A stretch of DNA of 64,000 bases from Yuukianura sp. NJ FZ-2021 (Eukaryota), in assembly GCA_046563655.1 (NCBI GenBank), contig CM102283.1, positions 4,154,001 to 4,218,000 on the forward strand. Direction: 5' to 3'. Of the stretch, positions 1 to 45,217 are shown in pieces. Both the position numbers and the translations under genes were made by a program. How positions within the stretch are numbered: position 1 is the first letter of the stretch; every line of letters starts with the position of its first letter. The notes beneath the pieces were generated by a model that saw nothing but the letters and a program-made list of their open reading frames with translations, searched no databases and was not told the DNA's origin.

Positions 1-825
1 ACTTGGGTTCCTGTAGTACTTTTCAGGAGGATTTCAGAAAAGTAACTCATTTTCACACGGCATTCCTCCGCGTGGAGGTTTTTCGAATAATTTGTTTTGA
101 AACAAATTTTCATAAATACAGGTAACAAGATGATGGACGACACAGCAAATGAAAGTGGGTTCTTGTAGCCCTTTTTATGAGGATTTCAAAAATATAGTTG
201 ACTCTTGCCTAGCATCGTTCCGGAATGCATTTCTTTTGAATTCTTTGTTTTGAAACTTGAATTTTCATAAAGAAAAGTAACGAGATGAGGGACGCCACGG
301 CAAGTGAAAGTGGGTTCCTGTAGCACTTTTTATGAGGGTTTCAAAAATGTAGTTGACTTTTACCTAGCATCGTTCCGGAATGCATTTCTTTTGAATTCTT
401 TGTTTTGAAACTTGAATTTTCATAAAGAAAAGTAACGAGATGAGGGACGCCACGGCAAGTGAAAGTGGGTTCCTGTAGCACTTTTTATGAGGGTTTCAAA
501 AATGTAGTTGACTTTTACCTAGCATCGTTCCGGAATGCATTTCTTTTGAATTTTTTGTTTTGAAACTTGAATCTTCATAAATAAAGGTAACAAGATGAGG
601 GACGACACGGCAAGTGAAAGTGGGATCCTGTAGCACCTTTTATGAGGATTTCAAAAATGTAGTTGACTTTTACCCAGCATCGTTCCGGAATGCATTTCTT
701 TTGAATTCTTTGTTTTGAAACTTGAATTTTCATAAAGAAAGGTAACAAGATGAGGCACGACACAGCAAGTGAAAGTGGGTTCCTGTAGCACTTTTTATGG
801 GGATTTCAAAAATGTAGTCGACTTT

Positions 826-1010
826 CTGTTCATTCTCACATTTGCGTGCTCAATCTCACAAATTTAAGTCGTTTTCGACAAAATGGTGCTCGGCATTGCC
901 CTGGGTGCCGTTTACCAACCCAAGATAAACTCCGAGGCAGAGCGGTTCATCCAGACTTTTAAGTACACTCTAACCAGATTTAATGGCGATCTATCCACGC
1001 CAATCAAACT
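826..1010 (+). mobile_element. Representative ~185-bp insert, allele A: degenerate LTR-retrotransposon (Ty3/Gypsy-like) integrase core fragment
   Basis: Non-satellite segment ctgttcattctcaca...ccaatcaaact. With two 1-bp frameshifts it translates as KFKSF-RQNGARHC-LGAVYQPKINSEAERFIQTFKYTL, resembling the rve motif F..F...NGI.H...APYHP..NG.AERF.QTFK..L. Further A copies start at ~1831, 2838, 3844, 4851, 5858, 6865, 7872, 9032, 9884, 10736, 11898, 12905, 13911, 14917, 16930, 21095, 35734, 36431, 37825 and 40847. Recognised by eye; no search was run. Confidence 0.8.
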
Positions 1011-1011
1011 T

Positions 1012-1162
1012 GGGTTCCTGTAGTACTTTTCAGGAGGATTTCAGAAAAGTAACTCATTTTCACACGGCATCGCTCCGCGTGGAGGTTTTTCGAATAATTT
1101 GTTTTGAAACAAATTTTCATAAAAAAAGTCAGAAGATGAGGGACGAAACAGCAAGTGAAAGC
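1012..1162. repeat. Representative divergent ~152-bp monomer that follows every insert
   Basis: gggttcctgtagtacttttcaggaggatttcagaaaagtaactcattttcacacggcatcgctccgcgtggaggtttttcgaataatttgttttgaaacaaattttcataaa... is colinear with the 155-mer but strongly diverged. The gggttcc-to-gggttcc distance is 151-152 bp. Confidence 0.88.
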
Positions 1163-4100
1163 GGGTTCCCGTAGCCCTTTTTATGAGGATTTCAAAAATA
1201 TAATTGACTTTTACCAAGCATCGTTCCGGAATGCATTTCTTTTGAATTCTTTGTTTTGAAACATGAATTTTCATAAATACAGGTAACAAGATGATGGACG
1301 ACACAGCAAATGAAAGTGGGTTCTTGTAGCCCTTTTTATGAGGATTTCAAAAATATAGTTGACTCTTACCTAGCATCGTTCCGGAATGCATTTCTTTTGA
1401 ATTCTTTGTTTTGAAACTTGAATTTTCATAAAGAAAAGTAACGAGATGAGGGACGCCACGGCAAGTGAAAGTGGGTTCCTTTAGCACTTTTTATGAGGGT
1501 TTCAAAAATGTAGTTGACTTTTACTTAGCATCGTTCCGGAATGCATTTCTTTTGAATTCTTTGTTTTGAAACTTGAATTTCATAAATAAAGGTAACAAGA
1601 TGAGGGACGACACGGCAAGTGAAAGTGGGATCCTGTAGCACCTTTTATGAGGATTTCAAAAATGTAGTTGACTTTTACCCAGCATCGTTCCGGAATGCAT
1701 TTCTTTTGAATTCTTTGTTTTGAAACTTGAATTTTCATAAAGAAAGGTAACAAGATGAGGCACGACACAGCAAGTGAAAGTGGGTTCCTGTAGCACTTTT
1801 TATGAGGATTTCAAAAATGTAGTCGACTTTCTGTTCATTCTCACATTTGCGTGCTCAATCTCACAAATTTAAGTCGTTTTCGACAAAATGGTGCTCGGCA
1901 TTGCCCTGGGTGCCGTTTACCAACCCAAGATAATCTCCGAGGCAGAGCGGTTCATCCAGACTTTTAAGTACACTCTAACCAGATTTAATGGCGATCTATC
2001 CACGCCAATCAAACTTGGGTTCCTGTAGTACTTTTCAGGAGGATTTCAGAAAAGTAACTCATTTTCACACGGCATTCCTCCGCGTGGAGGTTTTTCGAAT
2101 AATTTGTTTTGAAACAAATTTTCATAAATACAGGTAACAAGATGATGGACGACACAGCAAATGAAAGTGGGTTCTTGTAGCCCTTTTTATGAGGATTTCA
2201 AAAATATAGTTGACTCTTGCCTAGCATCGTTCCGGAATGCATTTCTTTTGAATTCTTTGTTTTGAAACTTGAATTTTCATAAAGAAAAGTAACGAGATGA
2301 GGGACGCCACGGCAAGTGAAAGTGGGTTCCTGTAGCACTTTTTATGAGGGTTTCAAAAATGTAGTTGACTTTTACCTAGCATCGTTCCGGAATGCATTTC
2401 TTTTGAATTCTTTGTTTTGAAACTTGAATTTTCATAAAGAAAAGTAACGAGATGAGGGACGCCACGGCAAGTGAAAGTGGGTTCCTGTAGCACTTTTTAT
2501 GAGGGTTTCAAAAATGTAGTTGACTTTTACCTAGCATCGTTCCGGAATGCATTTCTTTTGAATTTTTTGTTTTGAAACTTGAATCTTCATAAATAAAGGT
2601 AACAAGATGAGGGACGACACGGCAAGTGAAAGTGGGATCCTGTAGCACCTTTTATGAGGATTTCAAAAATGTAGTTGACTTTTACCCAGCATCGTTCCGG
2701 AATGCATTTCTTTTGAATTCTTTGTTTTGAAACTTGAATTTTCATAAAGAAAGGTAACAAGATGAGGCACGACACAGCAAGTGAAAGTGGGTTCCTGTAG
2801 CACTTTTTATGGGGATTTCAAAAATGTAGTCGACTTTCTGTTCATTCTCACATTTGCGTGCTCAATCTCACAAATTTAAGTCGTTTTCGACAAAATGGTG
2901 CTCGGCATTGCCCTGGGTGCCGTTTACCAACCCAAGATAAACTCCGAGGCAGAGCGGTTCATCCAGACTTTTAAGTACACTCTAACCAGATTTAATGGCG
3001 ATCTATCCACGCCAATCAAACTTGGGTTCCTGTAGTACTTTTCAGGAGGATTTCAGAAAAGTAACTCATTTTCACACGGCATCGCTCCGCGTGGAGGTTT
3101 TTCGAATAATTTGTTTTGAAACAAATTTTCATAAAAAAAAGTCAGAAGATGAGGGACGAAACAGCAAGTGAAAGCGGGTTCCCGTAGCCCTTTTTATGAG
3201 GATTTCAAAAATATAATTGACTTTTACCAAGCATCGTTCCGGAATGCATTTCTTTTGAATTCTTTGTTTTGAAACATGAATTTTCATAAATACAGGTAAC
3301 AAGATGATGGACGACACAGCAAATGAAAGTGGGTTCTTGTAGCCCTTTTTATGAGGATTTCAAAAATATAGTTGACTCTTACCTAGCATCGTTCCGGAAT
3401 GCATTTCTTTTGAATTCTTTGTTTTGAAACTTGAATTTTCATAAAGAAAAGTAACGAGATGAGGGACGCCACGGCAAGTGAAAGTGGGTTCCTTTAGCAC
3501 TTTTTATGAGGGTTTCAAAAATGTAGTTGACTTTTACCTAGCATCGTTCCGGAATGCATTTCTTTTGAATTCTTTGTTTTGAAACTTGAATTTCATAAAT
3601 AAAGGTAACAAGATGAGGGACGACACGGCAAGTGAAAGTGGGATCCTGTAGCACCTTTTATGAGGATTTCAAAAATGTAGTTGACTTTTACCCAGCATCG
3701 TTCCGGAATGCATTTCTTTTGAATTCTTTGTTTTGAAACTTGAATTTTCATAAAGAAAGGTAACAAGATGAGGCACGACACAGCAAGTGAAAGTGGGTTC
3801 CTGTAGCACTTTTTATGAGGATTTCAAAAATGTAGTCGACTTTCTGTTCATTCTCACATTTGCGTGCTCAATCTCACAAATTTAAGTCGTTTTCGACAAA
3901 ATGGTGCTCGGCATTGCCCTGGGTGCCGTTTACCAACCCAAGATAATCTCCGAGGCAGAGCGGTTCATCCAGACTTTTAAGTACACTCTAACCAGATTTA
4001 ATGGCGATCTATCCACGCCAATCAAACTTGGGTTCCTGTAGTACTTTTCAGGAGGATTTCAGAAAAGTAACTCATTTTCACACGGCATTCCTCCGCGTGG

Positions 4101-7100
4101 AGGTTTTTCGAATAATTTGTTTTGAAACAAATTTTCATAAATACAGGTAACAAGATGATGGACGACACAGCAAATGAAAGTGGGTTCTTGTAGCCCTTTT
4201 TATGAGGATTTCAAAAATATAGTTGACTCTTGCCTAGCATCGTTCCGGAATGCATTTCTTTTGAATTCTTTGTTTTGAAACTTGAATTTTCATAAAGAAA
4301 AGTAACGAGATGAGGGACGCCACGGCAAGTGAAAGTGGGTTCCTGTAGCACTTTTTATGAGGGTTTCAAAAATGTAGTTGACTTTTACCTAGCATCGTTC
4401 CGGAATGCATTTCTTTTGAATTCTTTGTTTTGAAACTTGAATTTTCATAAAGAAAAGTAACGAGATGAGGGACGCCACGGCAAGTGAAAGTGGGTTCCTG
4501 TAGCACTTTTTATGAGGGTTTCAAAAATGTAGTTGACTTTTACCTAGCATCGTTCCGGAATGCATTTCTTTTGAATTTTTTGTTTTGAAACTTGAATCTT
4601 CATAAATAAAGGTAACAAGATGAGGGACGACACGGCAAGTGAAAGTGGGATCCTGTAGCACCTTTTATGAGGATTTCAAAAATGTAGTTGACTTTTACCC
4701 AGCATCGTTCCGGAATGCATTTCTTTTGAATTCTTTGTTTTGAAACTTGAATTTTCATAAAGAAAGGTAACAAGATGAGGCACGACACAGCAAGTGAAAG
4801 TGGGTTCCTGTAGCACTTTTTATGGGGATTTCAAAAATGTAGTCGACTTTCTGTTCATTCTCACATTTGCGTGCTCAATCTCACAAATTTAAGTCGTTTT
4901 CGACAAAATGGTGCTCGGCATTGCCCTGGGTGCCGTTTACCAACCCAAGATAATCTCCGAGGCAGAGCGGTTCATCCAGACTTTTAAGTACACTCTAACC
5001 AGATTTAATGGCGATCTATCCACGCCAATCAAACTTGGGTTCCTGTAGTACTTTTCAGGAGGATTTCAGAAAAGTAACTCATTTTCACACGGCATTCCTC
5101 CGCGTGGAGGTTTTTCGAATAATTTGTTTTGAAACAAATTTTCATAAATACAGGTAACAAGATGATGGACGACACAGCAAATGAAAGTGGGTTCTTGTAG
5201 CCCTTTTTATGAGGATTTCAAAAATATAGTTGACTCTTGCCTAGCATCGTTCCGGAATGCATTTCTTTTGAATTCTTTGTTTTGAAACTTGAATTTTCAT
5301 AAAGAAAAGTAACGAGATGAGGGACGCCACGGCAAGTGAAAGTGGGTTCCTGTAGCACTTTTTATGAGGATTTCAAAAATGTAGTTGACTTTTACCTAGC
5401 ATCGTTCCGGAATGCATTTCTTTTGAATTCTTTGTTTTGAAACTTGAATTTTCATAAAGAAAAGTAACGAGATGAGGGACGCCACGGCAAGTGAAAGTGG
5501 GTTCCTGTAGCACTTTTTATGAGGGTTTCAAAAATGTAGTTGACTTTTACCTAGCATCGTTCCGGAATGCATTTCTTTTGAATTTTTTGTTTTGAAACTT
5601 GAATCTTCATAAATAAAGGTAACAAGATGAGGGACGACACGGCAAGTGAAAGTGGGATCCTGTAGCACCTTTTATGAGGATTTCAAAAATGTAGTTGACT
5701 TTTACCCAGCATCGTTCCGGAATGCATTTCTTTTGAATTCTTTGTTTTGAAACTTGAATTTTCATAAAGAAAGGTAACAAGATGAGGCACGACACAGCAA
5801 GTGAAAGTGGGTTCCTGTAGCACTTTTTATGGGGATTTCAAAAATGTAGTCGACTTTCTGTTCATTCTCACATTTGCGTGCTCAATCTCACAAATTTAAG
5901 TCGTTTTCGACAAAATGGTGCTCGGCATTGCCCTGGGTGCCGTTTACCAACCCAAGATAATCTCCGAGGCAGAGCGGTTCATCCAGACTTTTAAGTACAC
6001 TCTAACCAGATTTAATGGCGATCTATCCACGCCAATCAAACTTGGGTTCCTGTAGTACTTTTCAGGAGGATTTCAGAAAAGTAACTCATTTTCACACGGC
6101 ATTCCTCCGCGTGGAGGTTTTTCGAATAATTTGTTTTGAAACAAATTTTCATAAATACAGGTAACAAGATGATGGACGACACAGCAAATGAAAGTGGGTT
6201 CTTGTAGCCCTTTTTATGAGGATTTCAAAAATATAGTTGACTCTTGCCTAGCATCGTTCCGGAATGCATTTCTTTTGAATTCTTTGTTTTGAAACTTGAA
6301 TTTTCATAAAGAAAAGTAACGAGATGAGGGACGCCACGGCAAGTGAAAGTGGGTTCCTGTAGCACTTTTTATGAGGGTTTCAAAAATGTAGTTGACTTTT
6401 ACCTAGCATCGTTCCGGAATGCATTTCTTTTGAATTCTTTGTTTTGAAACTTGAATCTTCATAAATAAAGGTAACGAGATGAGGGACGCCACGGCAAGTG
6501 AAAGTGGGTTCCTGTAGCACTTTTTATGAGGGTTTCAAAAATGTAGTTGACTTTTACCTAGCATCGTTCCGGAATGCATTTCTTTTGAATTCTTTGTTTT
6601 GAAACTTGAATCTTCATAAATAAAGGTAACAAGATGAGCGACGACACGGCAAGTGAAAGTGGGATCCTGTAGCACCTTTTATGAGGATTTCAAAAATGCA
6701 GTTGACTTTTACCCAGCATCGTTCCGGAATGCATTTCTTTTGAATTCTTTGTTTTGAAACTTGAATTTTCATAAAGAAAGGTAACAAGATGAGGCACGAC
6801 ACAGCAAGTGAAAGTGGGTTCCTGTAGCACTTTTTATGAGGATTTCAAAAATGTAGTCGACTTTCTGTTCATTCTCACATTTGCGTGCTCAATCTCACAA
6901 ATTTAAGTCGTTTTCGACAAAATGGTGCTTGGCATTGCCCTGGGTGCCGTTTACCAACCCAAGATAATCTCCGAGGCAGAGCGGTTCATCCAGACTTTTA
7001 AGTACACTCTAACCAGATTTAATGGCGATCTATCCACGCCAATCAAACTTGGGTTCCTGTAGTACTTTTCAGGAGGATTTCAGAAAAGTAACTCATTTTC

Positions 7101-10100
7101 ACACGGCATTCCTCCGCGTGGAGGTTTTTCGAATAATTTGTTTTGAAACAAATTTTCATAAATACAGGTAACAAGATGATGGACGACACAGCAAATGAAA
7201 GTGGGTTCTTGTAGCCCTTTTTATGAGGATTTCAAAAATATAGTTGACTCTTGCCTAGCATCGTTCCGGAATGCATTTCTTTTGAATTCTTTGTTTTGAA
7301 ACTTGAATTTTCATAAAGAAAAGTAACGAGATGAGGGACGCCACGGCAAGTGAAAGTGGGTTCCTGTAGCACTTTTTATGAGGGTTTCAAAAATGTAGTT
7401 GACTTTTACCTAGCATCGTTCCGGAATGCATTTCTTTTGAATTCTTTGTTTTGAAACTTGAATTTTCATAAAGAAAAGTAACGAGATGAGGGACGCCACG
7501 GCAAGTGAAAGTGGGTTCCTGTAGCACTTTTTATGAGGGTTTCAAAAATGTAGTTGACTTTTACCTAGCATCGTTCCGGAATGCATTTCTTTTGAATTTT
7601 TTGTTTTGAAACTTGAATCTTCATAAATAAAGGTAACAAGATGAGGGACGACACGGCAAGTGAAAGTGGGATCCTGTAGCACCTTTTATGAGGATTTCAA
7701 AAATGTAGTTGACTTTTACCCAGCATCGTTCCGGAATGCATTTCTTTTGAATTCTTTGTTTTGAAACTTGAATTTTCATAAAGAAAGGTAACAAGATGAG
7801 GCACGACACAGCAAGTGAAAGTGGGTTCCTGTAGCACTTTTTATGGGGATTTCAAAAATGTAGTCGACTTTCTGTTCATTCTCACATTTGCGTGCTCAAT
7901 CTCACAAATTTAAGTCGTTTTCGACAAAATGGTGCTCGGCATTGCCCTGGGTGCCGTTTACCAACCCAAGATAAACTCCGAGGCAGAGCGGTTCATCCAG
8001 ACTTTTAAGTACACTCTAACCAGATTTAATGGCGATCTATCCACGCCAATCAAACTTGGGTTCCTGTAGTACTTTTCAGGAGGATTTCAGAAAAGTAACT
8101 CATTTTCACACGGCATCGCTCCGCGTGGAGGTTTTTCGAATAATTTGTTTTGAAACAAATTTTCATAAAAAAAGTCAGAAGATGAGGGACGAAACAGCAA
8201 GTGAAAGCGGGTTCCCGTAGCCCTTTTTATGAGGATTTCAAAAATATAATTGACTTTTACCAAGCATCGTTCCGGAATGCATTTCTTTTGAATTCTTTGT
8301 TTTGAAACATGAATTTTCATAAATACAGGTAACAAGATGATGGACGACACAGCAAATGAAAGTGGGTTCTTGTAGCCCTTTTTATGAGGATTTCAAAAAT
8401 ATAGTTGACTCTTACCTAGCATCGTTCCGGAATGCATTTCTTTTGAATTCTTTGTTTTGAAACTTGAATTTTCATAAAGAAAAGTAACGAGATGAGGGAC
8501 GCCACGGCAAGTGAAAGTGGGTTCCTGTAGCACTTTTTATGAGGGTTTCAAAAATGTAGTTGACTTTTACCTAGCATCGTTCCGGAATGCATTTCTTTTG
8601 AATTCTTTGTTTTGAAACTTGAATCTTCATAAATAAAGGTAACGAGATGAGGGACGCCACGGCAAGTGAAAGTGGGTTCCTGTAGCACTTTTTATGAGGG
8701 TTTCAAAAATGTAGTTGACTTTTACCTAGCATCGTTCCGGAATGCATTTCTTTTGAATTCTTTGTTTTGAAACTTGAATTTCATAAATAAAGGTAACAAG
8801 ATGAGCGACGACACGGCAAGTGAAAGTGGGATCCTGTAGCACCTTTTATGAGGATTTCAAAAATGCAGTTGACTTTTACCCAGCATCGTTCCGGAATGCA
8901 TTTCTTTTGAATTCTTTGTTTTGAAACTTGAATTTTCATAAAGAAAGGTAACAAGATGAGGCACGACACAGCAAGTGAAAGTGGGTTCCTGTAGCACTTT
9001 TTATGAGGATTTCAAAAATGTAGTCGACTTTCTGTTCATTCTCACATTTGCGTGCTCAATCTCACAAATTTAAGTCGTTTTCGACAAAATGGTGCTTGGC
9101 ATTGCCCTGGGTGCCGTTTACCAACCCAAGATAATCTCCGAGGCAGAGCGGTTCATCCAGACTTTTAAGTACACTCTAACCAGATTTAATGGCGATCTAT
9201 CCACGCCAATCAAACTTGGGTTCCTGTAGTACTTTTCAGGAGGATTTCAGAAAAGTAACTCATTTTCACACGGCATTCCTCCGCGTGGAGGTTTTTCGAA
9301 TAATTTGTTTTGAAACAAATTTTCATAAATACAGGTAACAAGATGATGGACGACACAGCAAGTGAAAGTGGGATCCTGTAGCACCTTTTATGAGGATTTC
9401 AAAAATATAGTTGACTCTTGCCTAGCATCGTTCCGGAATGCATTTCTTTTGAATTCTTTGTTTTGAAACTTGAATTTTCATAAAGAAAAGTAACGAGATG
9501 AGGGACGCCACGGCAAGTGAAAGTGGGTTCCTGTAGCACTTTTTATGAGGGTTTCAAAAATGTAGTTGACTTTTACCTAGCATCGTTCCGGAATGCATTT
9601 CTTTTGAATTCTTTGTTTTGAAACTTGAATCTTCATAAATAAAGGTAACAAGATGAGCGACGACACGGCAAGTGAAAGTGGGATCCTGTAGCACCTTTTA
9701 TGAGGATTTCAAAAATGCAGTTGACTTTTACCCAGCATCGTTCCGGAATGCATTTCTTTTGAATTCTTTGTTTTGAAACTTGAATTTTCATAAAGAAAGG
9801 TAACAAGATGAGGCACGACACAGCAAGTGAAAGTGGGTTCCTGTAGCACTTTTTATGAGGATTTCAAAAATGTAGTCGACTTTCTGTTCATTCTCACATT
9901 TGCGTGCTCAATCTCACAAATTTAAGTCGTTTTCGACAAAATGGTGCTTGGCATTGCCCTGGGTGCCGTTTACCAACCCAAGATAATCTCCGAGGCAGAG
10001 CGGTTCATCCAGACTTTTAAGTACACTCTAACCAGATTTAATGGCGATCTATCCACGCCAATCAAACTTGGGTTCCTGTAGTACTTTTCAGGAGGATTTC

Positions 10101-13100
10101 AGAAAAGTAACTCATTTTCACACGGCATTCCTCCGCGTGGAGGTTTTTCGAATAATTTGTTTTGAAACAAATTTTCATAAATACAGGTAACAAGATGATG
10201 GACGACACAGCAAATGAAAGTGGGTTCTTGTAGCCCTTTTTATGAGGATTTCAAAAATATAGTTGACTCTTGCCTAGCATCGTTCCGGAATGCATTTCTT
10301 TTGAATTCTTTGTTTTGAAACTTGAATTTTCATAAAGAAAAGTAACGAGATGAGGGACGCCACGGCAAGTGAAAGTGGGTTCCTGTAGCACTTTTTATGA
10401 GGGTTTCAAAAATGTAGTTGACTTTTACCTAGCATCGTTCCGGAATGCATTTCTTTTGAATTCTTTGTTTTGAAACTTGAATCTTCATAAATAAAGGTAA
10501 CAAGATGAGCGACGACACGGCAAGTGAAAGTGGGATCCTGTAGCACCTTTTATGAGGATTTCAAAAATGCAGTTGACTTTTACCCAGCATCGTTCCGGAA
10601 TGCATTTCTTTTGAATTCTTTGTTTTGAAACTTGAATTTTCATAAAGAAAGGTAACAAGATGAGGCACGACACAGCAAGTGAAAGTGGGTTCCTGTAGCA
10701 CTTTTTATGAGGATTTCAAAAATGTAGTCGACTTTCTGTTCATTCTCACATTTGCGTGCTCAATCTCACAAATTTAAGTCGTTTTCGACAAAATGGTGCT
10801 TGGCATTGCCCTGGGTGCCGTTTACCAACCCAAGATAATCTCCGAGGCAGAGCGGTTCATCCAGACTTTTAAGTACACTCTAACCAGATTTAATGGCGAT
10901 CTATCCACGCCAATCAAACTTGGGTTCCTGTAGTACTTTTCAGGAGGATTTCAGAAAAGTAACTCATTTTCACACGGCATTCCTCCGCGTGGAGGTTTTT
11001 CGAATAATTTGTTTTGAAACAAATTTTCATAAATACAGGTAACAAGATGATGGACGACACAGCAAATGAAAGTGGGTTCTTGTAGCCCTTTTTATGAGGA
11101 TTTCAAAAATATAGTTGACTCTTGCCTAGCATCGTTCCGGAATGCATTTCTTTTGAATTCTTTGTTTTGAAACTTGAATTTTCATAAAGAAAAGTAACGA
11201 GATGAGGGACGCCACGGCAAGTGAAAGTGGGTTCCTGTAGCACTTTTTATGAGGGTTTCAAAAATGTAGTTGACTTTTACCTAGCATCGTTCCGGAATGC
11301 ATTTCTTTTGAATTCTTTGTTTTGAAACTTGAATCTTCATAAATAAAGGTAACGAGATGAGGGACGCCACGGCAAGTGAAAGTGGGTTCCTGTAGCACTT
11401 TTTATGAGGGTTTCAAAAATGTAGTTGACTCTTACCTAGCATCGTTCCGGAATGCATTTCTTTTGAATTCTTTGTTTTGAAACTTGAATTTTCATAAAGA
11501 AAAGTAACGAGATGAGGGACGCCACGGCAAGTGAAAGTGGGTTCCTTTAGCACTTTTTATGAGGGTTTCAAAAATGTAGTTGACTTTTACCTAGCATCGT
11601 TCCGGAATGCATTTCTTTTGAATTCTTTGTTTTGAAACTTGAATTTTCATAAATAAAGGTAACAAGATGAGGGACGACACGGCAAGTGAAAGTGGGATCC
11701 TGTAGCACCTTTTATGAGGATTTCAAAAATGTAGTTGACTTTTACCCAGCATCGTTCCGGAATGCATTTCTTTTGAATTCTTTGTTTTGAAACTTGAATT
11801 TTCATAAAGAAAGGTAACAAGATGAGGCACGACACAGCAAGTGAAAGTGGGTTCCTGTAGCACTTTTTATGAGGATTTCAAAAATGTAGTCGACTTTCTG
11901 TTCATTCTCACATTTGCGTGCTCAATCTCACAAATTTAAGTCGTTTTCGACAAAATGGTGCTCGGCATTGCCCTGGGTGCCGTTTACCAACCCAAGATAA
12001 TCTCCGAGGCAGAGCGGTTCATCCAGACTTTTAAGTACACTCTAACCAGATTTAATGGCGATCTATCCACGCCAATCAAACTTGGGTTCCTGTAGTACTT
12101 TTCAGGAGGATTTCAGAAAAGTAACTCATTTTCACACGGCATTCCTCCGCGTGGAGGTTTTTCGAATAATTTGTTTTGAAACAAATTTTCATAAATACAG
12201 GTAACAAGATGATGGACGACACAGCAAATGAAAGTGGGTTCTTGTAGCCCTTTTTATGAGGATTTCAAAAATATAGTTGACTCTTGCCTAGCATCGTTCC
12301 GGAATGCATTTCTTTTGAATTCTTTGTTTTGAAACTTGAATTTTCATAAAGAAAAGTAACGAGATGAGGGACGCCACGGCAAGTGAAAGTGGGTTCCTGT
12401 AGCACTTTTTATGAGGATTTCAAAAATGTAGTTGACTTTTACCTAGCATCGTTCCGGAATGCATTTCTTTTGAATTCTTTGTTTTGAAACTTGAATCTTC
12501 ATAAATAAAGGTAACGAGATGAGGGACGCCACGGCAAGTGAAAGTGGGTTCCTGTAGCACTTTTTATGAGGGTTTCAAAAATGTAGTTGACTTTTACCTA
12601 GCATCGTTCCGGAATGCATTTCTTTTGAATTCTTTGTTTTGAAACTTGAATCTTCATAAATAAAGGTAACAAGATGAGCGACGACACGGCAAGTGAAAGT
12701 GGGATCCTGTAGCACCTTTTATGAGGATTTCAAAAATGCAGTTGACTTTTACCCAGCATCGTTCCGGAATGCATTTCTTTTGAATTCTTTGTTTTGAAAC
12801 TTGAATTTTCATAAAGAAAGGTAACAAGATGAGGCACGACACAGCAAGTGAAAGTGGGTTCCTGTAGCACTTTTTATGAGGATTTCAAAAATGTAGTCGA
12901 CTTTCTGTTCATTCTCACATTTGCGTGCTCAATCTCACAAATTTAAGTCGTTTTCGACAAAATGGTGCTTGGCATTGCCCTGGGTGCCGTTTACCAACCC
13001 AAGATAATCTCCGAGGCAGAGCGGTTCATCCAGACTTTTAAGTACACTCTAACCAGATTTAATGGCGATCTATCCACGCCAATCAAACTTGGGTTCCTGT

Positions 13101-15748
13101 AGTACTTTTCAGGAGGATTTCAGAAAAGTAACTCATTTTCACACGGCATTCCTCCGCGTGGAGGTTTTTCGAATAATTTGTTTTGAAACAAATTTTCATA
13201 AATACAGGTAACAAGATGATGGACGACACAGCAAATGAAAGTGGGTTCTTGTAGCCCTTTTTATGAGGATTTCAAAAATATAGTTGACTCTTGCCTAGCA
13301 TCGTTCCGGAATGCATTTCTTTTGAATTCTTTGTTTTGAAACTTGAATTTTCATAAAGAAAAGTAACGAGATGAGGGACGCCACGGCAAGTGAAAGTGGG
13401 TTCCTGTAGCACTTTTTATGAGGATTTCAAAAATGTAGTTGACTTTTACCTAGCATCGTTCCGGAATGCATTTCTTTTGAATTCTTTGTTTTGAAACTTG
13501 AATCTTCATAAATAAAGGTAACGAGATGAGGGACGCCACGGCAAGTGAAAGTGGGTTCCTGTAGCACTTTTTATGAGGGTTTCAAAAATGTAGTTGACTT
13601 TTACCTAGCATCGTTCCGGAATGCATTTCTTTTGAATTCTTTGTTTTGAAACTTGAATTTCATAAATAAAGGTAACAAGATGAGCGACGACACGGCAAGT
13701 GAAAGTGGGATCCTGTAGCACCTTTTATGAGGATTTCAAAAATGCAGTTGACTTTTACCCAGCATCGTTCCGGAATGCATTTCTTTTGAATTCTTTGTTT
13801 TGAAACTTGAATTTTCATAAAGAAAGGTAACAAGATGAGGCACGACACAGCAAGTGAAAGTGGGTTCCTGTAGCACTTTTTATGAGGATTTCAAAAATGT
13901 AGTCGACTTTCTGTTCATTCTCACATTTGCGTGCTCAATCTCACAAATTTAAGTCGTTTTCGACAAAATGGTGCTTGGCATTGCCCTGGGTGCCGTTTAC
14001 CAACCCAAGATAATCTCCGAGGCAGAGCGGTTCATCCAGACTTTTAAGTACACTCTAACCAGATTTAATGGCGATCTATCCACGCCAATCAAACTTGGGT
14101 TCCTGTAGTACTTTTCAGGAGGATTTCAGAAAAGTAACTCATTTTCACACGGCATTCCTCCGCGTGGAGGTTTTTCGAATAATTTGTTTTGAAACAAATT
14201 TTCATAAATACAGGTAACAAGATGATGGACGACACAGCAAATGAAAGTGGGTTCTTGTAGCCCTTTTTATGAGGATTTCAAAAATATAGTTGACTCTTGC
14301 CTAGCATCGTTCCGGAATGCATTTCTTTTGAATTCTTTGTTTTGAAACTTGAATTTTCATAAAGAAAAGTAACGAGATGAGGGACGCCACGGCAAGTGAA
14401 AGTGGGTTCCTGTAGCACTTTTTATGAGGATTTCAAAAATGTAGTTGACTTTTACCTAGCATCGTTCCGGAATGCATTTCTTTTGAATTCTTTGTTTTGA
14501 AACTTGAATCTTCATAAATAAAGGTAACGAGATGAGGGACGCCACGGCAAGTGAAAGTGGGTTCCTGTAGCACTTTTTATGAGGGTTTCAAAAATGTAGT
14601 TGACTTTTACCTAGCATCGTTCCGGAATGCATTTCTTTTGAATTCTTTGTTTTGAAACTTGAATTTCATAAATAAAGGTAACAAGATGAGGGACGACACG
14701 GCAAGTGGAAGTGGGATCCTGTAGCACCTTTTATGAGGATTTCAAAAATGTAGTTGACTTTTACCCAGCATCGTTCCGGAATGCATTTCTTTTGAATTCT
14801 TTGTTTTGAAACTTGAATTTTCATAAAGAAAGGTAACAAGATGAGGCACGACACAGCAAGTGAAAGTGGGTTCCTGTAGCACTTTTTATGAGGATTTCAA
14901 AAATGTAGTCGACTTTCTGTTCATTCTCGCATTTGCGTGCTCAATCTCACAAATTTAAGTCGTTTTCGACAAAATGGTGCTCGGCATTGCCCTGGGTGCC
15001 GTTTACCAACCCAAGATAATCTCCGAGGCAGAGCGGTTCATCCAGACTTTTAAGTACACTCTAACCAGATTTAATGGCGATCTATCCACGCCAATCAAAC
15101 TTGGGTTCCTGTAGTACTTTTCAGGAGGATTTCAGAAAAGTAACTCATTTTCACACGGCATTCCTCCGCGTGGAGGTTTTTCGAATAATTTGTTTTGAAA
15201 CAAATTTTCATAAATACAGGTAACAAGATGATGGACGACACAGCAAATGAAAGTGGGTTCTTGTAGCCCTTTTTATGAGGATTTCAAAAATATAGTTGAC
15301 TCTTGCCTAGCATCGTTCCGGAATGCATTTCTTTTGAATTCTTTGTTTTGAAACTTGAATTTTCATAAAGAAAAGTAACGAGATGAGGGACGCCACGGCA
15401 AGTGAAAGTGGGTTCCTGTAGCACTTTTTATGAGGATTTCAAAAATGTAGTTGACTTTTACCTAGCATCGTTCCGGAATGCATTTCTTTTGAATTCTTTG
15501 TTTTGAAACTTGAATTTTCATAAATAAAGGTAACAAGATGAGGGACGACACGGCAAGTGAAAGTGGGATCCTGTAGCACCTTTTATGAGGATTTCAAAAA
15601 TGTAGTTGACTTTTACCCAGCATCGTTCCGGAATGCATTTCTTTTGAATTCTTTGTTTTGAAACTTGAATTTTCATAAAGAAAGGTAACAAGATGAGGCA
15701 CGACACAGCAAGTGAAAGTGGGTTCCTGTAGCACTTTTTATGAGGATT

Positions 15749-17600
15749 GGTGCTCGGCATTGCCCTGGGTGCCGTTTACCAACCCAAGATAATCTCCGAG
15801 GCAGAGCGGTTCACCCAGACTTTTAAGTACACTCTAACCAGATTTAATGGCGATCTATCCACGCCAATCAAACTTGGGTTCCTGTAGTACTTTTCAGGAG
15901 GAGTTCAAAAAAGTAACTCATTTTCACACGGCATTCCTCCGCGTGGAGGTTTTTCGAATAATTTGTTTTGAAACAAATTTTCATAAAAAAAATTCAGAAG
16001 ATGAGGGACGAAACAGCAAGTGAAAGTGGGTTCCTGTAGCACTTTTTATGAGGATTTCAAAAATGTAATTTAGTTTCTGTTTATTCTCACATTTGCATGT
16101 TCATTCTCACAAATTTAAGTCGTTTTGTGTCAAAATGGTGCTCGACATTGCCCTGGGTGCCGTATTCCAACCCGAGATAAAATCCGAGGTTGAGCGGTTC
16201 ATTCATACTTTCAAGTACGCTCTAACCAGATTTAATTGCGATCTATCCACGCCAATTAAACTTGGGTTCCTGTAGTACTTTTCAGGAGGATTTCAGAAAA
16301 GTAACTCATTTTCACACGGCATCGCTCCGCGTGAAGGTTTTTCGAATAATTTGTTTTGAAACAAATTTTCATAAAAAAAATTCAGAAGATGAGGGACGAA
16401 ACAGCAAATGAAAGTGGGTTCTTGTAGCCCTTTTTATGAGGGTTTCAAAAATGTAGTTGACTTTTACCTAGCATCGTTCCGGAATGCATTTCTTTTAAAT
16501 TCTTTGTTTTGAAACTTGAATTTTTATAAATAAAGGTAACAAGATGAGGCACGACACAGCAAGTGAAAGTGGGCTCCTGTAGCACTTTTTATGAGGGTTT
16601 CAAAAACGTAGTTGACTTTTACGTAGCATCGTTCCGGAATGCATTTCTTTTGAATTCTTTGTTTTGAAACTTGAATTTTCATAAATAAAGGCGACAAGAT
16701 GAAAGACGACGCAGCCAGTGAAAGTGGGCTCCTGTAGCACTTTTTATGAGGGTTTCAAAAATGTAGTTGACTTTTACGTAGCATCGTTCCGGAATGCATT
16801 TCTTTTGAATTCTTTGTTTTGAAACTTGAATTTTCATAAATAAAGGCGACAAGATGAAAGACGACGCAGCCAGTGAAAGTGGGCTCCTGTAGCACTTTTT
16901 ATGAGTATTTCAAAAATGTAGTCGACTTTCTGTTCATTCTCACATTTGCATGTTCATTCTCACAAATTTAAGTCGTTTTCGACAAAATGGTGCTCGGCAT
17001 TGCCCTGGGTGCCGTTTACCAACCCAAGATAAACTCCGAGGCAGAGCAGTTCATCCAGACTTTTAAGTACACTCTAACCAGATTTAATGGCGATCTATCC
17101 ACGCCAATCAAACTTGGGTTATTGTAGTACTTTTCAGGAGGATTTCAGAAAAGTAACCCATTTTCACCCGGCATCGCTCCGAGGAGGTTTCTGAAACAAG
17201 TTTTCATAAAGAAAAGTAACGAGATGAGGGACGCCACGGCAAGTGAAAGTGGGTTCCTGTAGCACTTTTTATGAGGATTTCAAAAATGTAATTTAGTTTC
17301 TGTTTATTCTCACATTTGCATGTTCATTCTCACAAATTTAAGTCGTTTTGTGTCAAAATGGTGCTCGACATTGCCCTGGGTGCCGTATTCCAACCCGAGA
17401 TAAAATCCGAGGTTGAGCGGTTCATTCATACTTTCAAGTACGCTCTAACCAGATTTAATTGCGATCTATCCACGCCAATTAAACTTGGGTTCCTGTAGTA
17501 CTTTTCAGGGGGATTTCAGAAAAGTAACTCATTTTCACACGGCATCGCTCCGCGTGGAGGTTTTTCGAATAATTTGTTTTGAAACAAATTTTCATAAAAA
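15749..17600. repeat. Transition zone between array-1 domains, with private monomer variants, deletions and the first allele-B inserts
   Basis: 79-bp deletion at 15748/15749. Variants gggctcc, acgtagc and ggcgacaagatgaaagacgacgcagccag occur only at ~16570-16900. Shortened divergent monomer at ~17170-17210. B inserts at ~16077 and ~17300. Confidence 0.85.
16077..16261 (+). mobile_element. Representative insert, allele B, of the integrase-like fragment
   Basis: ORF track 16093-16275 reads SHKFKSFCVK...GAVFQPEIKSEVERFIHTFKYAL; other B copies read ERFIQTFKYAL. Further B copies start at ~17300, 21482, 28688, 36818, 38212, 39685, 41234, 42706 and 43714. Confidence 0.78.
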
Positions 17601-26600: not shown

Positions 26601-29600
26601 AGGCACGACACAGCAAATGAAAGTGGGATCCTGTAGCACTTTTTATGAGGATTTCAAAAATGTAGTTGACTTTTACCCAGCATCGTTGCGGAATGCATTT
26701 CTTTTGAATTCTTTGTTTTGAAACTTGAATTTTCATAAAGAAAGGTAACAAGATGAGGCACGACACAGCAAGTGAAAGTGGGTTCCTGTAGCACTTTTTA
26801 TGAGGATTTCAAAAATGTAGTCGACTTTCTGCTCATTCTCACATTTGCGTGCTCAATCTCACAAATTTAAGTCGTTTTCGACAAAATGGTGCTCGGCATT
26901 GCCCTGGGTGCCGTATTCCAACCCGAGATAAAATACGAGGTTGAGCGGTTCATTCAGACTTTCAAGTACGCTCTAACCAGATTTAATTGCGATCTATCCA
27001 CGCCAATTAAACTTGGGTTCCTGTAGTACTTTTCAGGAGGATTTCAGAAAAGTAACTCATTTTCACACGGCATCGCTCCGCGTGGAGGTTTTTCGAATAA
27101 TTTGTTTTGAAACAAATTTTCATAAAAAAAGTCAGAAGATGAGGGACGAAACAGCAAGTGAAAGCGGGTTCCCGTAGCCCTTTTTATGAGGATTTCAAAA
27201 ATATAGTTGAGTTTTACCAAAGCATCGTTCCGGAATGCATTTCTTTTGAATTCTTTGTTTTGAAACATGAATTTTCATAAATAAAGGTAACAAGATGATG
27301 GACGACACAGCAAATGAAAGCGGGTTCCTGTAGTCCTTTTAATGAGGATTTCAAAAATATAGTTGACTCTTACCTAGCATCGTTCCGGAATGCATTTCTT
27401 TTAAATTCTTTGTTTTGAAACTTGAATTTTTATAAATAAAGGTAACAAGATGAGGCACGACACAGCAAGTGAAAGTGGGTTCCTGTAGCACTTTTTATGA
27501 GGATTTCAAAAATGTAGTTGACTTTTACCTAGCATCGTTCCGGAATGCATTTCTTTTAAATTCTTTGTTTTGAAACATGAATTTTCATGAATAAAGGTAA
27601 CAAGATGAGGGACGACACGGCAAGTGAACGTGGGTTCCTGTAGCACATTTTACGAGGATTTCAAAAATGTAGTTGACTCTTACCTAGCATCGTTCCGGAA
27701 TGCATTTCTTTTAAATTCTTTGTTTTGAAACTTGAATTTTTATAAATAAAGGTAACAAGATGAGGCACGACACAGCAAGTGAAAGTGGGTTCCTGTAGCA
27801 CTTTTTATGAGGATTTCAAAAATGTAGTTGACTTTTACCTAGCATCGTTCCGGAATGCATTTCTTTTGAATTCTTTGTTTTGAAACTTGAATTTTCATAA
27901 ATAAAGGTAACAAGATGAGGCACGACACAGCAAGTGAAAGTGGGTTCCTGTAGCACTTTTTATGAGGATTTCAAAAATGTAGTTTCGACTTTTAGGCATT
28001 CTCACATTTGCATCGTTCCGGAATCTCACAAATTTAACTCGTTTTCGTCAAAATGGTGCTCGACATTGCCCTGGGTGCCGTATTCCAACCCGAGATAAAA
28101 TCCGAGGTTGAGCGGTTCATTCAGACTTTCAAGTACGCTCTAACCAGATTTAATTGCGATCCACGCCTATCCACGCCAATTAAACTTGGGTTCCTGTAGT
28201 ACTTTTCAGGAGGATTTCAGAAAAGTAGTTGTCCTCATTTTCACACGGCATCGCTCCGCGTGGAGGTTTTCGAATAATTTGTTTTGAAACAAATTTTCAT
28301 AAAAAAAGTCAGAAGATGAGGGACGAACACAGCAAGTGAAAGCGGGTTCCTGTAGCACTTTTTATGAGGATTTCAAAAATGAAAGTGGGACTTTTGTAGC
28401 ATCGTTTTCCGGACAAAATGGTGCATTTCTTGCCCTGGGTGCTTTTGACCAACCCAAGATAAACTCCGAGGAGTTCCAGACTCTGTTTATTCAACACAAA
28501 TCAAAGTGGGTTTGTGGTAGCTTTTCAGGAGGTTTTCACACGGCATCGTTACCTAGCATCAAATTCTTTGTTTTGAAACTTGAATTTTCATAAAAAATAA
28601 AGGTAACAGAAGATGAGGGACGACACAGCAAGTGAAAGTGGGTTCCTGTAGCACTTTTTATGAGGATTTCAAAAAGTAATTTAGTTTCTGTTTATTCTCA
28701 CATTTGCATGTTCATTCTCACAAATTTAACTCTCAAAATGGTGCTCGACATTGCCCTGGGTGCCGTATTCCAACCCGAGATAAAATCCGAGGTTGAGCGG
28801 TTCATTCAGACTTTCAAGTACGCTCTAACCAGATTTAATTGCGATCTATCCACGCCAATTAAACTTGGGTTCCTGTAGTACTTTTCAGGAGGATTTCAGA
28901 AAAGTAACTCATTTTCACACGGCATCGCTCCGCGTGGAGGTTTTTCGAATAATTTGTTTTGAAACAAATTTTCATAAAAAAAGTAACAGAAGATGAGGGA
29001 CGAAACAGCAAGTGAAAGCGGGTTCCCGTAGCCCTTTTTATGAGGATTTCAAAAATATAGTTGACTTTTACCAAAGCATCGTTCCGGAATGCATTTCTTT
29101 TGAATTCTTTGTTTTGAAACATGAATTTTCATAAATAAAGGTAACAAGATGATGGACGACACAGCAAATGAAAGCGGGTTCTTGTAGTCCTTTTTATGAG
29201 GATTTCAAAAATATAGTTGACTCTTACCTAGCATCGTTCCGGAATGCATTTCTTTTAAATTCTTTGTTTTGAAACTTGAATTTTTATAAATAAAGGTAAC
29301 AAGATGAGGCACGACACAGCAAGTGAAAGTGGGTTCCTGTAGCACTTTTTATGAGGATTTCAAAAATGTAGTTGACTTTTACCTAGCATCGTTCCGGAAT
29401 GCATTTCTTTTAAATTCTTTGTTTTGAAACATGAATTTTCATGAATAAAGGTAACAAGATGAGGGACGACACGGCAAGTGAACGTGGGTTCCTGTAGCAC
29501 ATTTTATGAGGGTTTCAAAAATGTAGTTGACTTTTACCTAGCATCGTTCCGGAATGCATTTCTTTTAAATTCTTTGTTTTGAAACATGAATTTTCATAAA

Positions 29601-41400: not shown

Positions 41401-44200
41401 TATCCACGCCAATTAAACTTGGGTTCCTGTAGTACTTTTCAGGAGGATTTCAGAAAAGTAACTCATTTTCACACGGCATCGCTCCGCGTGGAGGTTTTTC
41501 GAATAATTTGTTTTGAAACAAATTTTCATAAAAAAAGTCAGAAGATGAGGGACGAAACAGCAAGTGAAAGCGGGTTCCCGTAGCCCTTTTTATGAGGATT
41601 TCAAAAATATAGTTGACTCTTACCTAGCATCGTTCCGGAATGCATTTCTTTTAAATTCTTTGTTTTGAAACTTGAATTTATATAAATAAAGGTAACAAGA
41701 TGAGGCACGACACAGCAAGTGAAAGTGGGTTCCTGTAGCACTTTTTATGAGGATTTCAAAAATGTAGTTGACTTTTACCTAGCATCGTTCCGGAATGCAT
41801 TTCTTTTAAATTCTTTGTTTTGAAACATGAATTTTCATAAATAAAGGTAACAAGATGAGGGACGACACGGCAAGTGAAAGTGGGTTCCTGTAGCACATTT
41901 TATGAGGGTTTCAAAAATGTAGTTGACTTTTACCTAGCATCGTTCCGGAATGCATTTCTTTTAAATTCTTTGTTTTGAAACTTGAATTTTTATAAATATA
42001 GGTAACAAGATGAGGCACGACACAGCAAGTGAAAGTGGGTTCCTGTAGCACTTTTTATGAGGATTTCAAAAATGTAGTTGACTTTTACCTAGCATCGTTC
42101 CGGAATGCATTTCTTTTGAATTGTTTGTTTTGAAACTTGAATTTTCATAAATAAAGGTAACAAGATGAGGCACGACACAGCAAGTGAAAGTGGGTTCCTG
42201 TAGCACATTTTATGAGGGTTTCAAAAATGTAGTTGACTTTTACCTAGCATCGTTCCGGAATGCATTTCTTTTAAACTCTTTGTTTTGAAACTTGAATTTT
42301 TATAAATAAAGGTAACAAGATGAGGCACGACACAGCAAGTAAAAGTGGGTTCCTGTAGCACTTTTTATGAGGATTTCAAAAATGTAGTTGACTTTTACCT
42401 AGCATCGTTCCGGAATGCATTTCTTTTGAATTCTTTTTTTTTAAACTTGCATTTTCATAAATAAAGGTAACAAGATGAGGCACGACACAGCAAGTGAAAG
42501 TGGGTTCCTGTAGCACTTTTTACGAGGATTTCAAAAATGTAGTTGACTTTTACCTAGCATCGTTCCGGAATGCATTTCTTTTGAATTCTTTGTTTTGAAA
42601 CTTGAATTTTCATAAATAAAGGTAACAAGATGAGGCACGACACAGCAAGTGAAAGTGGGTTCGTGTAGCACTTTTTATGAGGATTTCAAAAATGTAATTT
42701 ACTTTCTGTTCATTCTCACATTTGCATGTTCACTCTCACAAATTTAAGTCGTTTTGTGTCAAAATGGTGCTCGACATTGCCCTGGGTGCCGTATTCCAAC
42801 CCGAGATAAAATCCGAGGTTGAGCGGTTCATTCAGACTTTCAAGTACGCTCTAACCAGATTTAATTGCGATCTATCTACGCCAATTAAACTTGGGTTCCT
42901 GTAGTACTTTTCAGGAGGATTTCAGAAAAGTAACTCATTTTCACACGGCATCGCTCCGCGTGGAGGTTTTTCGAATAATTTGTTTTGAAACAAATTTTCA
43001 TAAAAAAAAGTCAGAAGATGAGGGACGACACAGCAAGTGAAAGCGGGTTCCCGTAGCCCTTTTTATGAGGATTTCAAAAATATAGTTGACTTTTACCAAG
43101 CATCGTTCCGGAATGCATTTCTTTTGAATTCTATGTTTTGAAACTTGAATTTTCATAAATAAAGGTAACAAGATGAGGCACGACACAGCAAGTGAAAGTG
43201 GGTTCCTGTAGCACATTTTATGAGGGTTTCAAAAATGTAGTTGACTTTTACCTAGCATCGTTCCGGAATGCATTTCTTTTAAACTCTTTGTTTTGAAACT
43301 TGAATTTTTATAAATAAAGGTAACAAGATGAGGCACGACACAGCAAGTAAAAGTGGGTTCCTGTAGCACTTTTTATGAGGATTTCAAAAATGTAGTTGAC
43401 TTTTACCTAGCATCGTTCCGGAATGCATTTCTTTTGAATTCTTTTTTTTGAAACTTGCATTTTCATAAATAAAGGTAACAAGATGAGGCACGACACAGCA
43501 AGTGAAAGTGGGTTCCTGTAGCACTTTTTACGAGGATTTCAAAAATGTAGTTGACTTTTACCTAGCATCGTTCCGGAATGCATTTCTTTTGAATTCTTTG
43601 TTTTGAAACTTGAATTTTCATAAATAAAGGTAACAAGATGAGGCACGACACAGCAAGTGAAAGTGGGTTCGTGTAGCACTTTTTATGAGGATTTCAAAAA
43701 TGTAATTTACTTTCTGTTCATTCTCACATTTGCATGTTCACTCTCACAAATTTAAGTCGTTTTGTGTCAAAATGGTGCTCGACATTGCCCTGGGTGCCGT
43801 ATTCCAACCCGAGATAAAATCCGAGGTTGAGCGGTTCATTCAGACTTTCAAGTACGCTCTAACCAGATTTAATTGCGATCTATCTACGCCAATTAAACTT
43901 GGGTTCCTGTAGTACTTTTCAGGAGGATTTCAGAAAAGTAACTCATTTTCACACGGCATCGCTCCGCGTGGAGGTTTTTCGAATAATTTGTTTTGAAACA
44001 AATTTTCATAAAAAAAGTCAGAAGATGAGGGACGACACAGCAAGTGAAAGCGGGTTCCCGTAGCCCTTTTTATGAGGATTTCAAAAATATAGTTGACTTT
44101 TACCAAGCATCGTTCCGGAATGCATTTCTTTTGAATTCTATGTTTTGAAACATGAATTTTCATAAATAAAGGTAACAAGATGATGGACGACACAGCAAGT
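35400..44200. repeat. Array 1 domain III: A+B insert pairs, with 697-bp, ~1008-bp and ~3022-bp duplications
   Basis: ORF-track spacings are 35483-36180 (697), 37574-40596 and 38228-41250 (3022), 39701-42722 (3021) and 42722-43730 (1008). Private variants include gagcattt, aatatagg, ggttcgtg and ctatctacg. Confidence 0.88.
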
Positions 44201-44552: not shown

Positions 44553-45217
44553 AGTTGAAAATTAAGGCTATACACTATCTAATTCCACTCTAACGCTGTT
44601 CTACAGTGGGGTTTGATGTGCCAACTTTTATTTTAGAAATAGTTTCGTTTGTTTTTTAAGTTGAAAATTAATGCTATACAGACACTATCTAATTCCACTC
44701 TAACGCTATTCTACAATGGTGTTTGATATGCCAAATTTTAGTTTAGGAATAGTCTCGCTTGTGTTTTAAGTTGAAATTAGGTATTCTTTGGAACAGCTAT
44801 TTTATTAAAACCCGCTTGCATTTGGACAAAAAGTAAAGTGGATTTTTCTTTAAAATTTCAATGTGCAACGTCTAGATTATAAGTCTATACCGACACTATC
44901 TAATTCCACTCTAACGCTATTCTACATTAGGGTTTGATGTGCCAACTTTTAGTTTAGGAATAGTTTCGCATGTGTTTTAAATTAAAATTTGATATGCTTT
45001 GGAACAGCTATTTTATTAAAACCCGCTTGCATTTGGACAAAAAGTAAAGTGGATTTTTCTTCAAAATTTCAATGTGCGACGTCTAGATTATAAGTCTATA
45101 CAGACACTATCTAATTCCACTCTAACGCCATTTTACAATGGTGTTTGATGTGCCAACTTTTAGTCGAGGAATAGATTCGCTTTTGTTTCAAGTTGAAATT
45201 AGATAGGAAATTAGATA
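44553..45217. repeat. Junction block: short diverged tandem repeat, ~211-bp unit (110 + 211 + 211 + truncated unit)
   Basis: cactatctaattccactctaacgc occurs at 44573, 44683, 44894 and 45105. The segment tttggaacagctattttattaaaacccgcttgcatttggacaaaaagtaaagtgg occurs twice. It is unrelated to either flanking satellite. Confidence 0.92.

Follow-up and report, generated by a model that had tools for sequence, protein, structure and literature searches.

The present study concerns a 64,000 nt stretch of the genome of Yuukianura sp. NJ FZ-2021 (GCA_046563655.1, CM102283.1:4,154,001-4,218,000, forward strand), hereafter termed the window, in whose numbering all positions are given. A 155-bp satellite array within this window carries a recurrent 185/186-bp insert of non-satellite sequence, which very probably represents the decayed remains of part of an integrase gene of Ty3/gypsy type. 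The array is a transposon-derived, or composite, satellite with the integrase fragment as a constant component of its repeating unit; the copies of the fragment have a single origin, were amplified within larger units and have exchanged sequence between alleles. The fragment itself encodes nothing usable and is a passenger in, and a marker of, the history of the array.

Results

Relatives of the insert are retroelement integrases

Relatives of the insert were obtained by scanning metagenome contigs with the main-frame peptide of insert allele A (51 aa, 868-1020). At least 589 pattern matches were recovered, four of which were confirmed by tblastn, and all four of the confirmed loci (L001 to L004) are retroelement integrases, with Pfam scores above or close to the cut-off, that read ERFIQTFK at the Glu motif. 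When the same scan was applied to prokaryote genomes (596 billion bases), none of 586 pattern matches was confirmed, indicating that such matches do not pass confirmation by chance, while a search of viral contigs with the L001 integrase gave four pattern matches, none of them confirmed. Of the relatives found, L001 is the closest to the insert and consists of a pol of 1228 aa in which protease, reverse transcriptase (RT), RNase H, H2C2 and rve domains are present; L002 contains H2C2, rve (E=1.9e-18) and rve_3, L003 contains rve_3, and L004 contains both rve and rve_3. The locus that holds L001 (positions 1-3687, metagenome contig Ga0194135_10018827) presents a seemingly intact Ty3/gypsy-type gag-pol frame, with zinc knuckles, that runs off the start of the locus.

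The nearest solved structure to L001 is the Ty3 Gag-Pol (7q5b; E=1.5e-19), followed by the prototype foamy virus (PFV) integrase. L001 aligns with both across the catalytic core, its ...AERF... stretch falling on the ...ER... motif of the two structures, as does the Glu of the ...ERF... stretch in the insert. This Glu is the last of the three residues that make up the D,D(35)E triad. Unlike the Ty3 and PFV integrases, the insert is a broken remnant of 62 codons, and it does not itself match any solved integrase.

Collinearity and reading frames

Frameshift-aware alignment of protein to DNA (BLOSUM62, gap -8, frameshift -12, parameters chosen once) gave 19/27 identical residues between allele A and L001, 20/46 between allele A and L002 over insert bases 45-183, 21/45 between allele A and L004, and 22/43 between allele B and L001. 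Copy 1 of the insert resolves into three frame pieces (Table 1), of which the third is identical by tblastn to L001 at 15/19 residues and to L002 at 16/37 residues over 901-1011. In a DNA alignment with three of the integrase genes, the second frame break corresponds to one extra base in the insert, and the same alignment displays a codon-like pattern of conservation. In allele B the two frame breaks cancel in length, allowing an ungapped tblastn alignment of 40 residues to L001, 17 of which are identical, and for the B-type copy at 39685 a gap-free alignment to residues 152-214 of L002 (19/63 identical) covers the entire insert.

On the alignment with L002 the fragment spans from the second Asp position of the triad to approximately 25 codons past the Glu. 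The second Asp position, at the 5' edge of the fragment, is not Asp in the ungapped alignment of copy 39685, and the first Asp lies outside the fragment; the triad is thus incomplete, the Glu codon alone being present. Nor is an open reading frame (ORF) retained in the insert, as it contains two frame breaks and has stop codons at, or just outside, both ends. At the level of sequence, the insert is collinear in its similarity to integrases around the catalytic Glu. The original prediction for this DNA had read the segment as an integrase core interrupted by two frameshifts and including the Glu position of the DD35E motif, and both elements of that reading were reproduced by alignment to real integrases, with three frame pieces, breaks at approximately 878 and 897, and a Glu codon placed by L001.

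Selection of the four loci relied on residues 12-48 of the main-frame peptide, and the DNA upstream, read in frames other than the main frame, had no part in that choice. These upstream regions (826-900 in allele A and 21482-21557 in allele B, the two alleles not being mutually independent) were therefore compared with dinucleotide shuffles. With the alignment constrained to finish at the anchor point, the score of the match in register was reached for allele B by 19 of 3000 shuffles, and without this anchor by 18 of 1500. The comparison lends moderate support to the integrase reading, and does so more strongly for the allele in which the S.EF..FC stretch is better preserved.

Three integrase-bearing ORFs, including the whole L001 pol, were also compared with the window by tblastn, and 116 of the 133 high-scoring segment pairs (HSPs) lay inside insert copies. 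Fifteen of the 17 HSPs outside the insert margins are listed, of which four overlap insert copies past those margins and 11 have E>=0.35. Among the HSPs listed, all those with E<0.1 fall on insert copies and none on plain monomers, and the 155-bp monomer is therefore not derived from pol. Two candidate extensions at the insert borders were rejected. Approximately 20 bp at the 3' end of the insert, which by eye agree with the monomer at approximately 14 of 20 bases, were considered as diverged monomer, but the alignment with L002 reaches the junction; at 39662 the match of L001 can be continued for 23 bp within the monomer head only by opening a 9-residue gap and reading through a stop, and this apparent extension was taken as chance.

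Insert copies share both junctions

A blastn search of the window with 826-1010 returned 41 matches, from 826-1010 to 43714-43899, all on the + strand, of which 39 span insert positions 1-185 or 6-185 and two are partial. The spacing of monomer anchors is 385-388 bp in 35 insert-spanning intervals versus 154-156 bp in 184 others and, given that the monomer that follows is 151 bp long, the 185 bp of the insert stand in for approximately 104-108 bp of one monomer. In an alignment of 39 copies with their flanks, approximately 49 bp of monomer head precede the left junction, and on the right the satellite resumes at the start of a monomer, TGGGTTCC; only the rearranged copies at 27992 and 28688 depart from this arrangement. 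Since these junctions are common to the copies, a single capture is indicated.

A consensus of the 155-bp monomer was derived from 22 monomers. The best local alignment of the insert to a monomer dimer scored 16, while 300 shuffles had a mean score of 17.2 (sd 2.2) and 237 of them scored >=16; the insert is not a diverged satellite monomer. The divergent monomer that directly follows the insert belongs to the composite unit: a 29-mer diagnostic of it has 41 matches in the window, 39 of which come after an insert copy found by blastn. The match at 44237 has no insert before it, and that at 35-63 shows the divergent monomer to be present already at the window edge, so that a 42nd insert probably lies just before base 1.

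Several claims of the original prediction are borne out by these data. It had proposed that the segment replaces about 105 bp of one 155-mer at a fixed position, and the anchor spacing and the identical junctions agree; that it was captured once, to which the identity of the junctions among copies points; that neither a long terminal repeat (LTR) nor a target-site duplication surrounds it, satellite sequence adjoining both ends; and that it was amplified about 40-fold, for which 41 copies were counted, a figure that describes the window alone. The outcome it had named as contradicting it, a segment that is itself a diverged monomer, did not materialise, the alignment to the monomer dimer being no better than that of shuffles.

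Three damaged insert copies cluster at 27992-28900 in what resembles a scar of local rearrangement within the array. At 975-1000, within the first insert, and at the same place in other copies, there is a short inverted repeat (TGGCG ... CGCCA). Twelve contigs of one public sequencing run continue, before position 987, as the reverse complement of neighbouring insert bases, which may represent either a real palindromic variant or an artefact of the contig graph.

Alleles, mosaics and higher-order repeats

Alleles A (185 bp) and B (186 bp) of the insert are 89% identical, and the copies comprise 20 AAA, nine BBB, seven AAB and one BAA, together with four rearranged or partial copies (Table 1). 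The A/B mosaics demonstrate that exchange between the alleles has occurred, and the two alleles of the original prediction, both of which are present, are consequently joined by further, recombinant ones. In the motif region approximately 10 base changes separate A from B, three or four of them silent (counted by eye in the alignment), and these differences look neutral, as expected of a dead fragment.

Ten units of 1005-1007 bp in the zone 826-15,101 are 96.0-100% alike (mean 98.3%), whereas the standard monomers within the unit are 90-94% alike and the divergent monomer 75-78%. The units being far more alike than the monomers inside them, this zone is a higher-order repeat (HOR). Outside it, the distance from insert to insert ranges from 387 bp, with one monomer between, to 3795 bp, with 23 monomers, and a single regular period does not run through the whole array, that of 1005-1007 bp being regular only within 826-15,101. 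The earlier description of the segment as a permanent HOR component consequently holds for the 1007-bp HOR of this zone and gives way to irregular spacing elsewhere in the array. The longest insert-free run (17573-21094, 23 monomers) lies between two insert-bearing zones, and its GC content (0.349 at 18001-20000) is below that of the remaining array.

In public sequencing runs of the source organism, 2828 and 1549 contigs aligned to the insert and its flanks, with B-like bases in the majority at several 5' insert positions. As thousands of run contigs align in this way, the approximately 40 copies of the window are a small sample. A second organism yielded a 256-bp contig over 797-1051 that includes both junctions and has 34 differences, which implies that the composite is widespread and older than the split of the two sources. 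Beyond the insert borders the run contigs show only ordinary monomer continuation and no parent element, among the matches listed (40 more being unlisted), and no RNA run is listed among the sequencing runs that carry the insert.

Table 1. Features of the window; coordinates are window positions.
Feature	Position	Strand	Basis or remarks
155-bp satellite array bearing inserts	1-44,552	+	Tandem Repeats Finder: period 155 throughout
Regular HOR zone	826-15,101	+	Contains 15 inserts of allele A; spacing mostly 1005-1007 bp, with 852, 1160 and 1162 bp also occurring
Insert copy 1, allele A, 185 bp, putative dead integrase-core fragment	826-1010	+	Collinear with integrases L001, L002, L004
Frame piece 1, copy 1; matches integrase S.EF..FC stretch; break at about 878	854-877	+	Frameshift-aware alignment to L004
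Frame piece 2, copy 1; includes NGARH (NGVRH in L001); break at about 897	879-896	+	Frameshift-aware alignment
Frame piece 3, copy 1; stretch around and after the Glu motif	898-1010	+	tblastn; Pfam rve_3 E=0.017
Codon equivalent to catalytic Glu of DD35E, copy 1	940-942	+	Sequence and alignment to L001
Divergent 151-bp monomer directly after insert, part of composite unit	1011-1161	+	75-78% identical to other monomers
Allele AAA, 20 copies	starts 826, 1831, 2838, 3844, 4851, 5858, 6865, 7872, 9032, 9884, 10736, 11898, 12905, 13911, 14917, 21095, 35734, 36431, 37825, 40847	+	
Allele B (BBB), 9 copies	type copy 21482-21667; starts 16077, 17300, 21482, 36818, 38212, 39685, 41234, 42706, 43714	+	
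Recombinant AAB (5' part A-like, 3' part B-like), 7 copies	type 23577-23761; starts 23577, 25512, 26829, 30000, 31318, 32946, 34573	+	
Recombinant BAA, 1 copy	16930-17114	+	Alignment
5'-truncated insert copy (insert positions 59-185)	15748-15874	+	blastn
Rearranged insert copy, monomer sequence inside 5' part and 6-bp duplication	about 27992/27997-28186	+	blastn, alignment
Internal insert fragment, 70 bp (insert positions 44-112)	28402-28471	+	blastn
B-like insert copy with 8-bp deletion	28688-28865	+	blastn, alignment

Neighbouring sequences

The array is followed by a transition zone (44,553-45,205) consisting of a small tandem repeat with units of 110 and 211 bp in 2-2.5 copies, for which no likeness to either the 155-bp or the 350-bp satellite was found. 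Via this short transition the array adjoins a 350-bp satellite (45,217-64,000; 53.8 copies, 92% matches) that is unrelated to the 155-bp satellite and has a GC content of approximately 40% with a strong skew of G over C, the GC content across the whole window being 35-40%. Six ORFs of the 110/211-bp repeat and the 350-bp satellite, four of them from the latter, had no Pfam match at E<=1, and no Rfam match at gathering thresholds was obtained in the whole window. Concerning the 155-bp satellite, a 20-base monomer string was not found in the papers searched, a string search being too narrow to call the satellite undescribed.

Discussion

Taken alone, the standard searches are only suggestive of integrase identity. 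With the main-frame peptide of allele A, Pfam returned rve_3 (E=0.017) and the unrelated DUF761 (E=0.14), while the Pfam rve model itself did not match the insert. NCBIfam returned IS481 alone, at the same Glu motif and below threshold (E=0.16 for allele A and E=0.047 for allele B), so that the best match in both curated libraries is a DDE integrase/transposase at the Glu motif. Fifteen control ORFs, drawn from other frames of the insert, monomers and neighbouring satellites, gave no integrase match and one unrelated match at E=0.1. A language-model search of named clusters placed an 'Integrase core domain-containing protein' at ranks 2 and 3 (0.91 and 0.90), a cluster with rve on 29% of its members at rank 4 (0.89) and one with rve_3 on 13% at rank 13; these integrase clusters are short, with scores of 0.85-0.91. 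The profile check of both alleles suggested by the original prediction thus produced sub-threshold rve_3 and IS481 matches at the Glu motif, and came close to the absence of a significant integrase hit that had been named as the outcome contradicting it.

A number of results weigh against the interpretation of the insert as an integrase remnant. No curated profile reached its own cut-off, the rve_3 match scoring 15.3 bits against a required 26.5, and a Pfam search of alleles B and C and of the allele-A variant at 1873-2025 gave no match. In a phmmer search against 1.84 billion representative sequences, six matches had E<=0.001 and only one of these was integrase-like. The sequence search of the PDB retrieved no integrase; its six matches (E 0.46-1.4), the best of which was the HIV-2 protease (E=0.46), are all lentiviral proteases and were taken as chance. 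Word-index searches gave 10 candidates for the 51-aa peptide among longer proteins, none at E<=10, and six candidates for a four-allele alignment at near lengths, none of which was confirmed. The four metagenome loci are a motif-based selection out of a very large collection, with E-values that are relative to the candidates alone. The upstream comparison is weak for allele A, where the observed score was reached by 186 of 3000 shuffles with the anchor and by 274 of 1500 without it. Finally, the route of insertion followed by deletion, discussed below, is one that we can only infer.

The single integrase-like phmmer match, P0004 (E=2.2e-4, aided by two stretches), corresponds to a duplicated segment from a plant integrase of the Ty3 type, while the other five are long proteins of repetitive sequence whose scores accumulate over many stretches. 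One repetitive entry, P0001, is a translated tandem repeat of 1113 residues that reached E=1.5e-20 to the 51-aa query via 13 weak stretches, and illustrates that such entries can top protein searches of this kind. Close kinship to the Ty3/gypsy elements of Asteraceae was considered and rejected: a profile of 82 integrase regions (those of 120 listed that have the motif and 140 residues before it) gives the insert only 6.9 bits, and the source is therefore not close to that lineage.

It is very unlikely that the integrase-like motif is a coincidence in an insert of different origin, whether a captured or a diverged sequence. Such a coincidence would be in keeping with profile matches that are all sub-threshold and with very large protein searches that yielded nothing significant beyond matches explained by repeats; moreover, by our estimate a match of approximately 35 bits is expected by chance in so large a metagenome set, and in the Atlas search one third of shuffled proteins also draw ten best matches from the same family. 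Coincidence would nevertheless have to account for four of four confirmed loci being integrases at the same catalytic motif, against none of 586 in prokaryote genomes, for the collinear and equal-length extension of the match into DNA and frames that lay outside the selection, and for the agreement on family between three different methods (Pfam, NCBIfam and the language-model search). The integrase origin which these observations favour leaves the nature of the carrier to be considered. Ginger- and Polinton-type DNA transposons and domesticated host genes can carry gypsy-like integrases, and with just 62 codons surviving, an integrase core alone does not reveal the type of element. A source of this sort is quite unlikely here, as the best relative, L001, encodes RT and RNase H ahead of its integrase in one continuous frame and shares 19/27 residues with the insert around the motif, while the frames beside the integrases of L002 and L004 read, by eye in the ORF translations, like the part of L001 from RNase H to integrase. 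The order protease-RT-RNase H-integrase in the pol of L001 is that of a Ty3/gypsy source, and the Ty3/gypsy origin put forward by the original prediction is upheld in that the nearest relatives found are Ty3/gypsy-type pol genes and the nearest structure to L001 is that of Ty3.

The insert is not a whole Ty3/gypsy element: LTRs, a primer-binding site, a target-site duplication, gag and RT were not found, and satellite sequence adjoins both ends. We propose that the integrase fragment would have entered the 155-bp array once, most likely by insertion of a retroelement into the array followed by deletions that reduced it and also removed approximately 105 bp of monomer. The remnant, the preceding 49-bp monomer head and the following, old divergent monomer would then have formed one composite block, which unequal exchange, segmental duplication and gene conversion may have multiplied together with a variable number of standard monomers. 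The outcome would be the young 1007-bp HOR at 826-15,101 and the older irregular arrangements elsewhere, with two alleles approximately 11% apart that have since recombined.

It is possible, if less probable, that no element ever integrated and that templated repair or recombination instead used a pol fragment, derived for example from cDNA or an ectopic copy, to close a break in the array. Neither junction has an LTR, a target-site duplication or other element sequence, and the fragment stands in place of monomer sequence and is not an addition to it, both of which would suit a patch of this kind. Normal insertion and two deletions, however, give the same end state, as has been proposed for the CRM repeats of maize (PMC3648361), and no clear microhomology was seen at the junctions by inspection; the window does not separate the two routes. 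Insertion followed by deletions seems the simpler of the two, and the model for CRM-derived repeats provides a precedent.

Repeats derived from retroelements are already well documented, and the present case is a further example of satellites acquiring transposon fragments. LCA-ApaI of the Arctic lamprey is a 702-bp repeat derived from the integrase region of a Ty3/Gypsy element, in which the element piece is the repeat itself and is 70.7% identical to a named parent, Gypsy-26_PM-I (PMC5381345); in the insert, by comparison, 185 bp are left, and these form one component of a composite unit within a 155-bp satellite that was there before them. CRM1TR and CRM4TR of maize are tandem repeats from Ty3/gypsy centromeric retrotransposons for which deletions were proposed to create the unit, and they resemble the history proposed for the insert in their Ty3/gypsy start and in the shaping of variants by gene conversion; unlike the insert they consist wholly of LTR and untranslated region, their unit containing neither coding sequence nor host satellite (PMC3648361). 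In humans, HSat1B (AT-rich sequence and Alu), the composites of beta-satellite and LSau, and the so-called composite satellites have units that include old transposon fragments (bioRxiv 10.1101/2021.07.12.452052). What these share with the present array is a repeating unit of which a transposon fragment has become a regular constituent. According to that preprint the human composites involve short interspersed nuclear elements (SINEs) or other elements and the phenomenon is rare in alpha-satellite HOR arrays, in contrast to which the present insert belongs to a satellite of nucleosome size in which a HOR is clearly developed. The distinctive feature of the array is thus its combination of a pre-existing nucleosome-sized satellite, a fragment of a coding region and a clear HOR.

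As an insert of one orientation and high copy number, the fragment could in theory serve as a large source of single-strand small RNA against the integrase region of the parent retroelement, the array acting as a satellite-embedded transposon trap, possibly in a functional centromere. We regard this as highly improbable. While the findings leave the understanding of satellites and of integrases unchanged, they illustrate that short, decayed coding fragments in satellites can evade standard profiles and can be recognised by frame-tolerant comparison to real elements. The fragment provides a clean, datable marker, since the capture, the two alleles, their recombinants and a young HOR can be read in the same 44 kb. 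With its aid, the order of amplification, gene conversion and the birth of the HOR may be reconstructed and compared with the second organism that holds the same composite.

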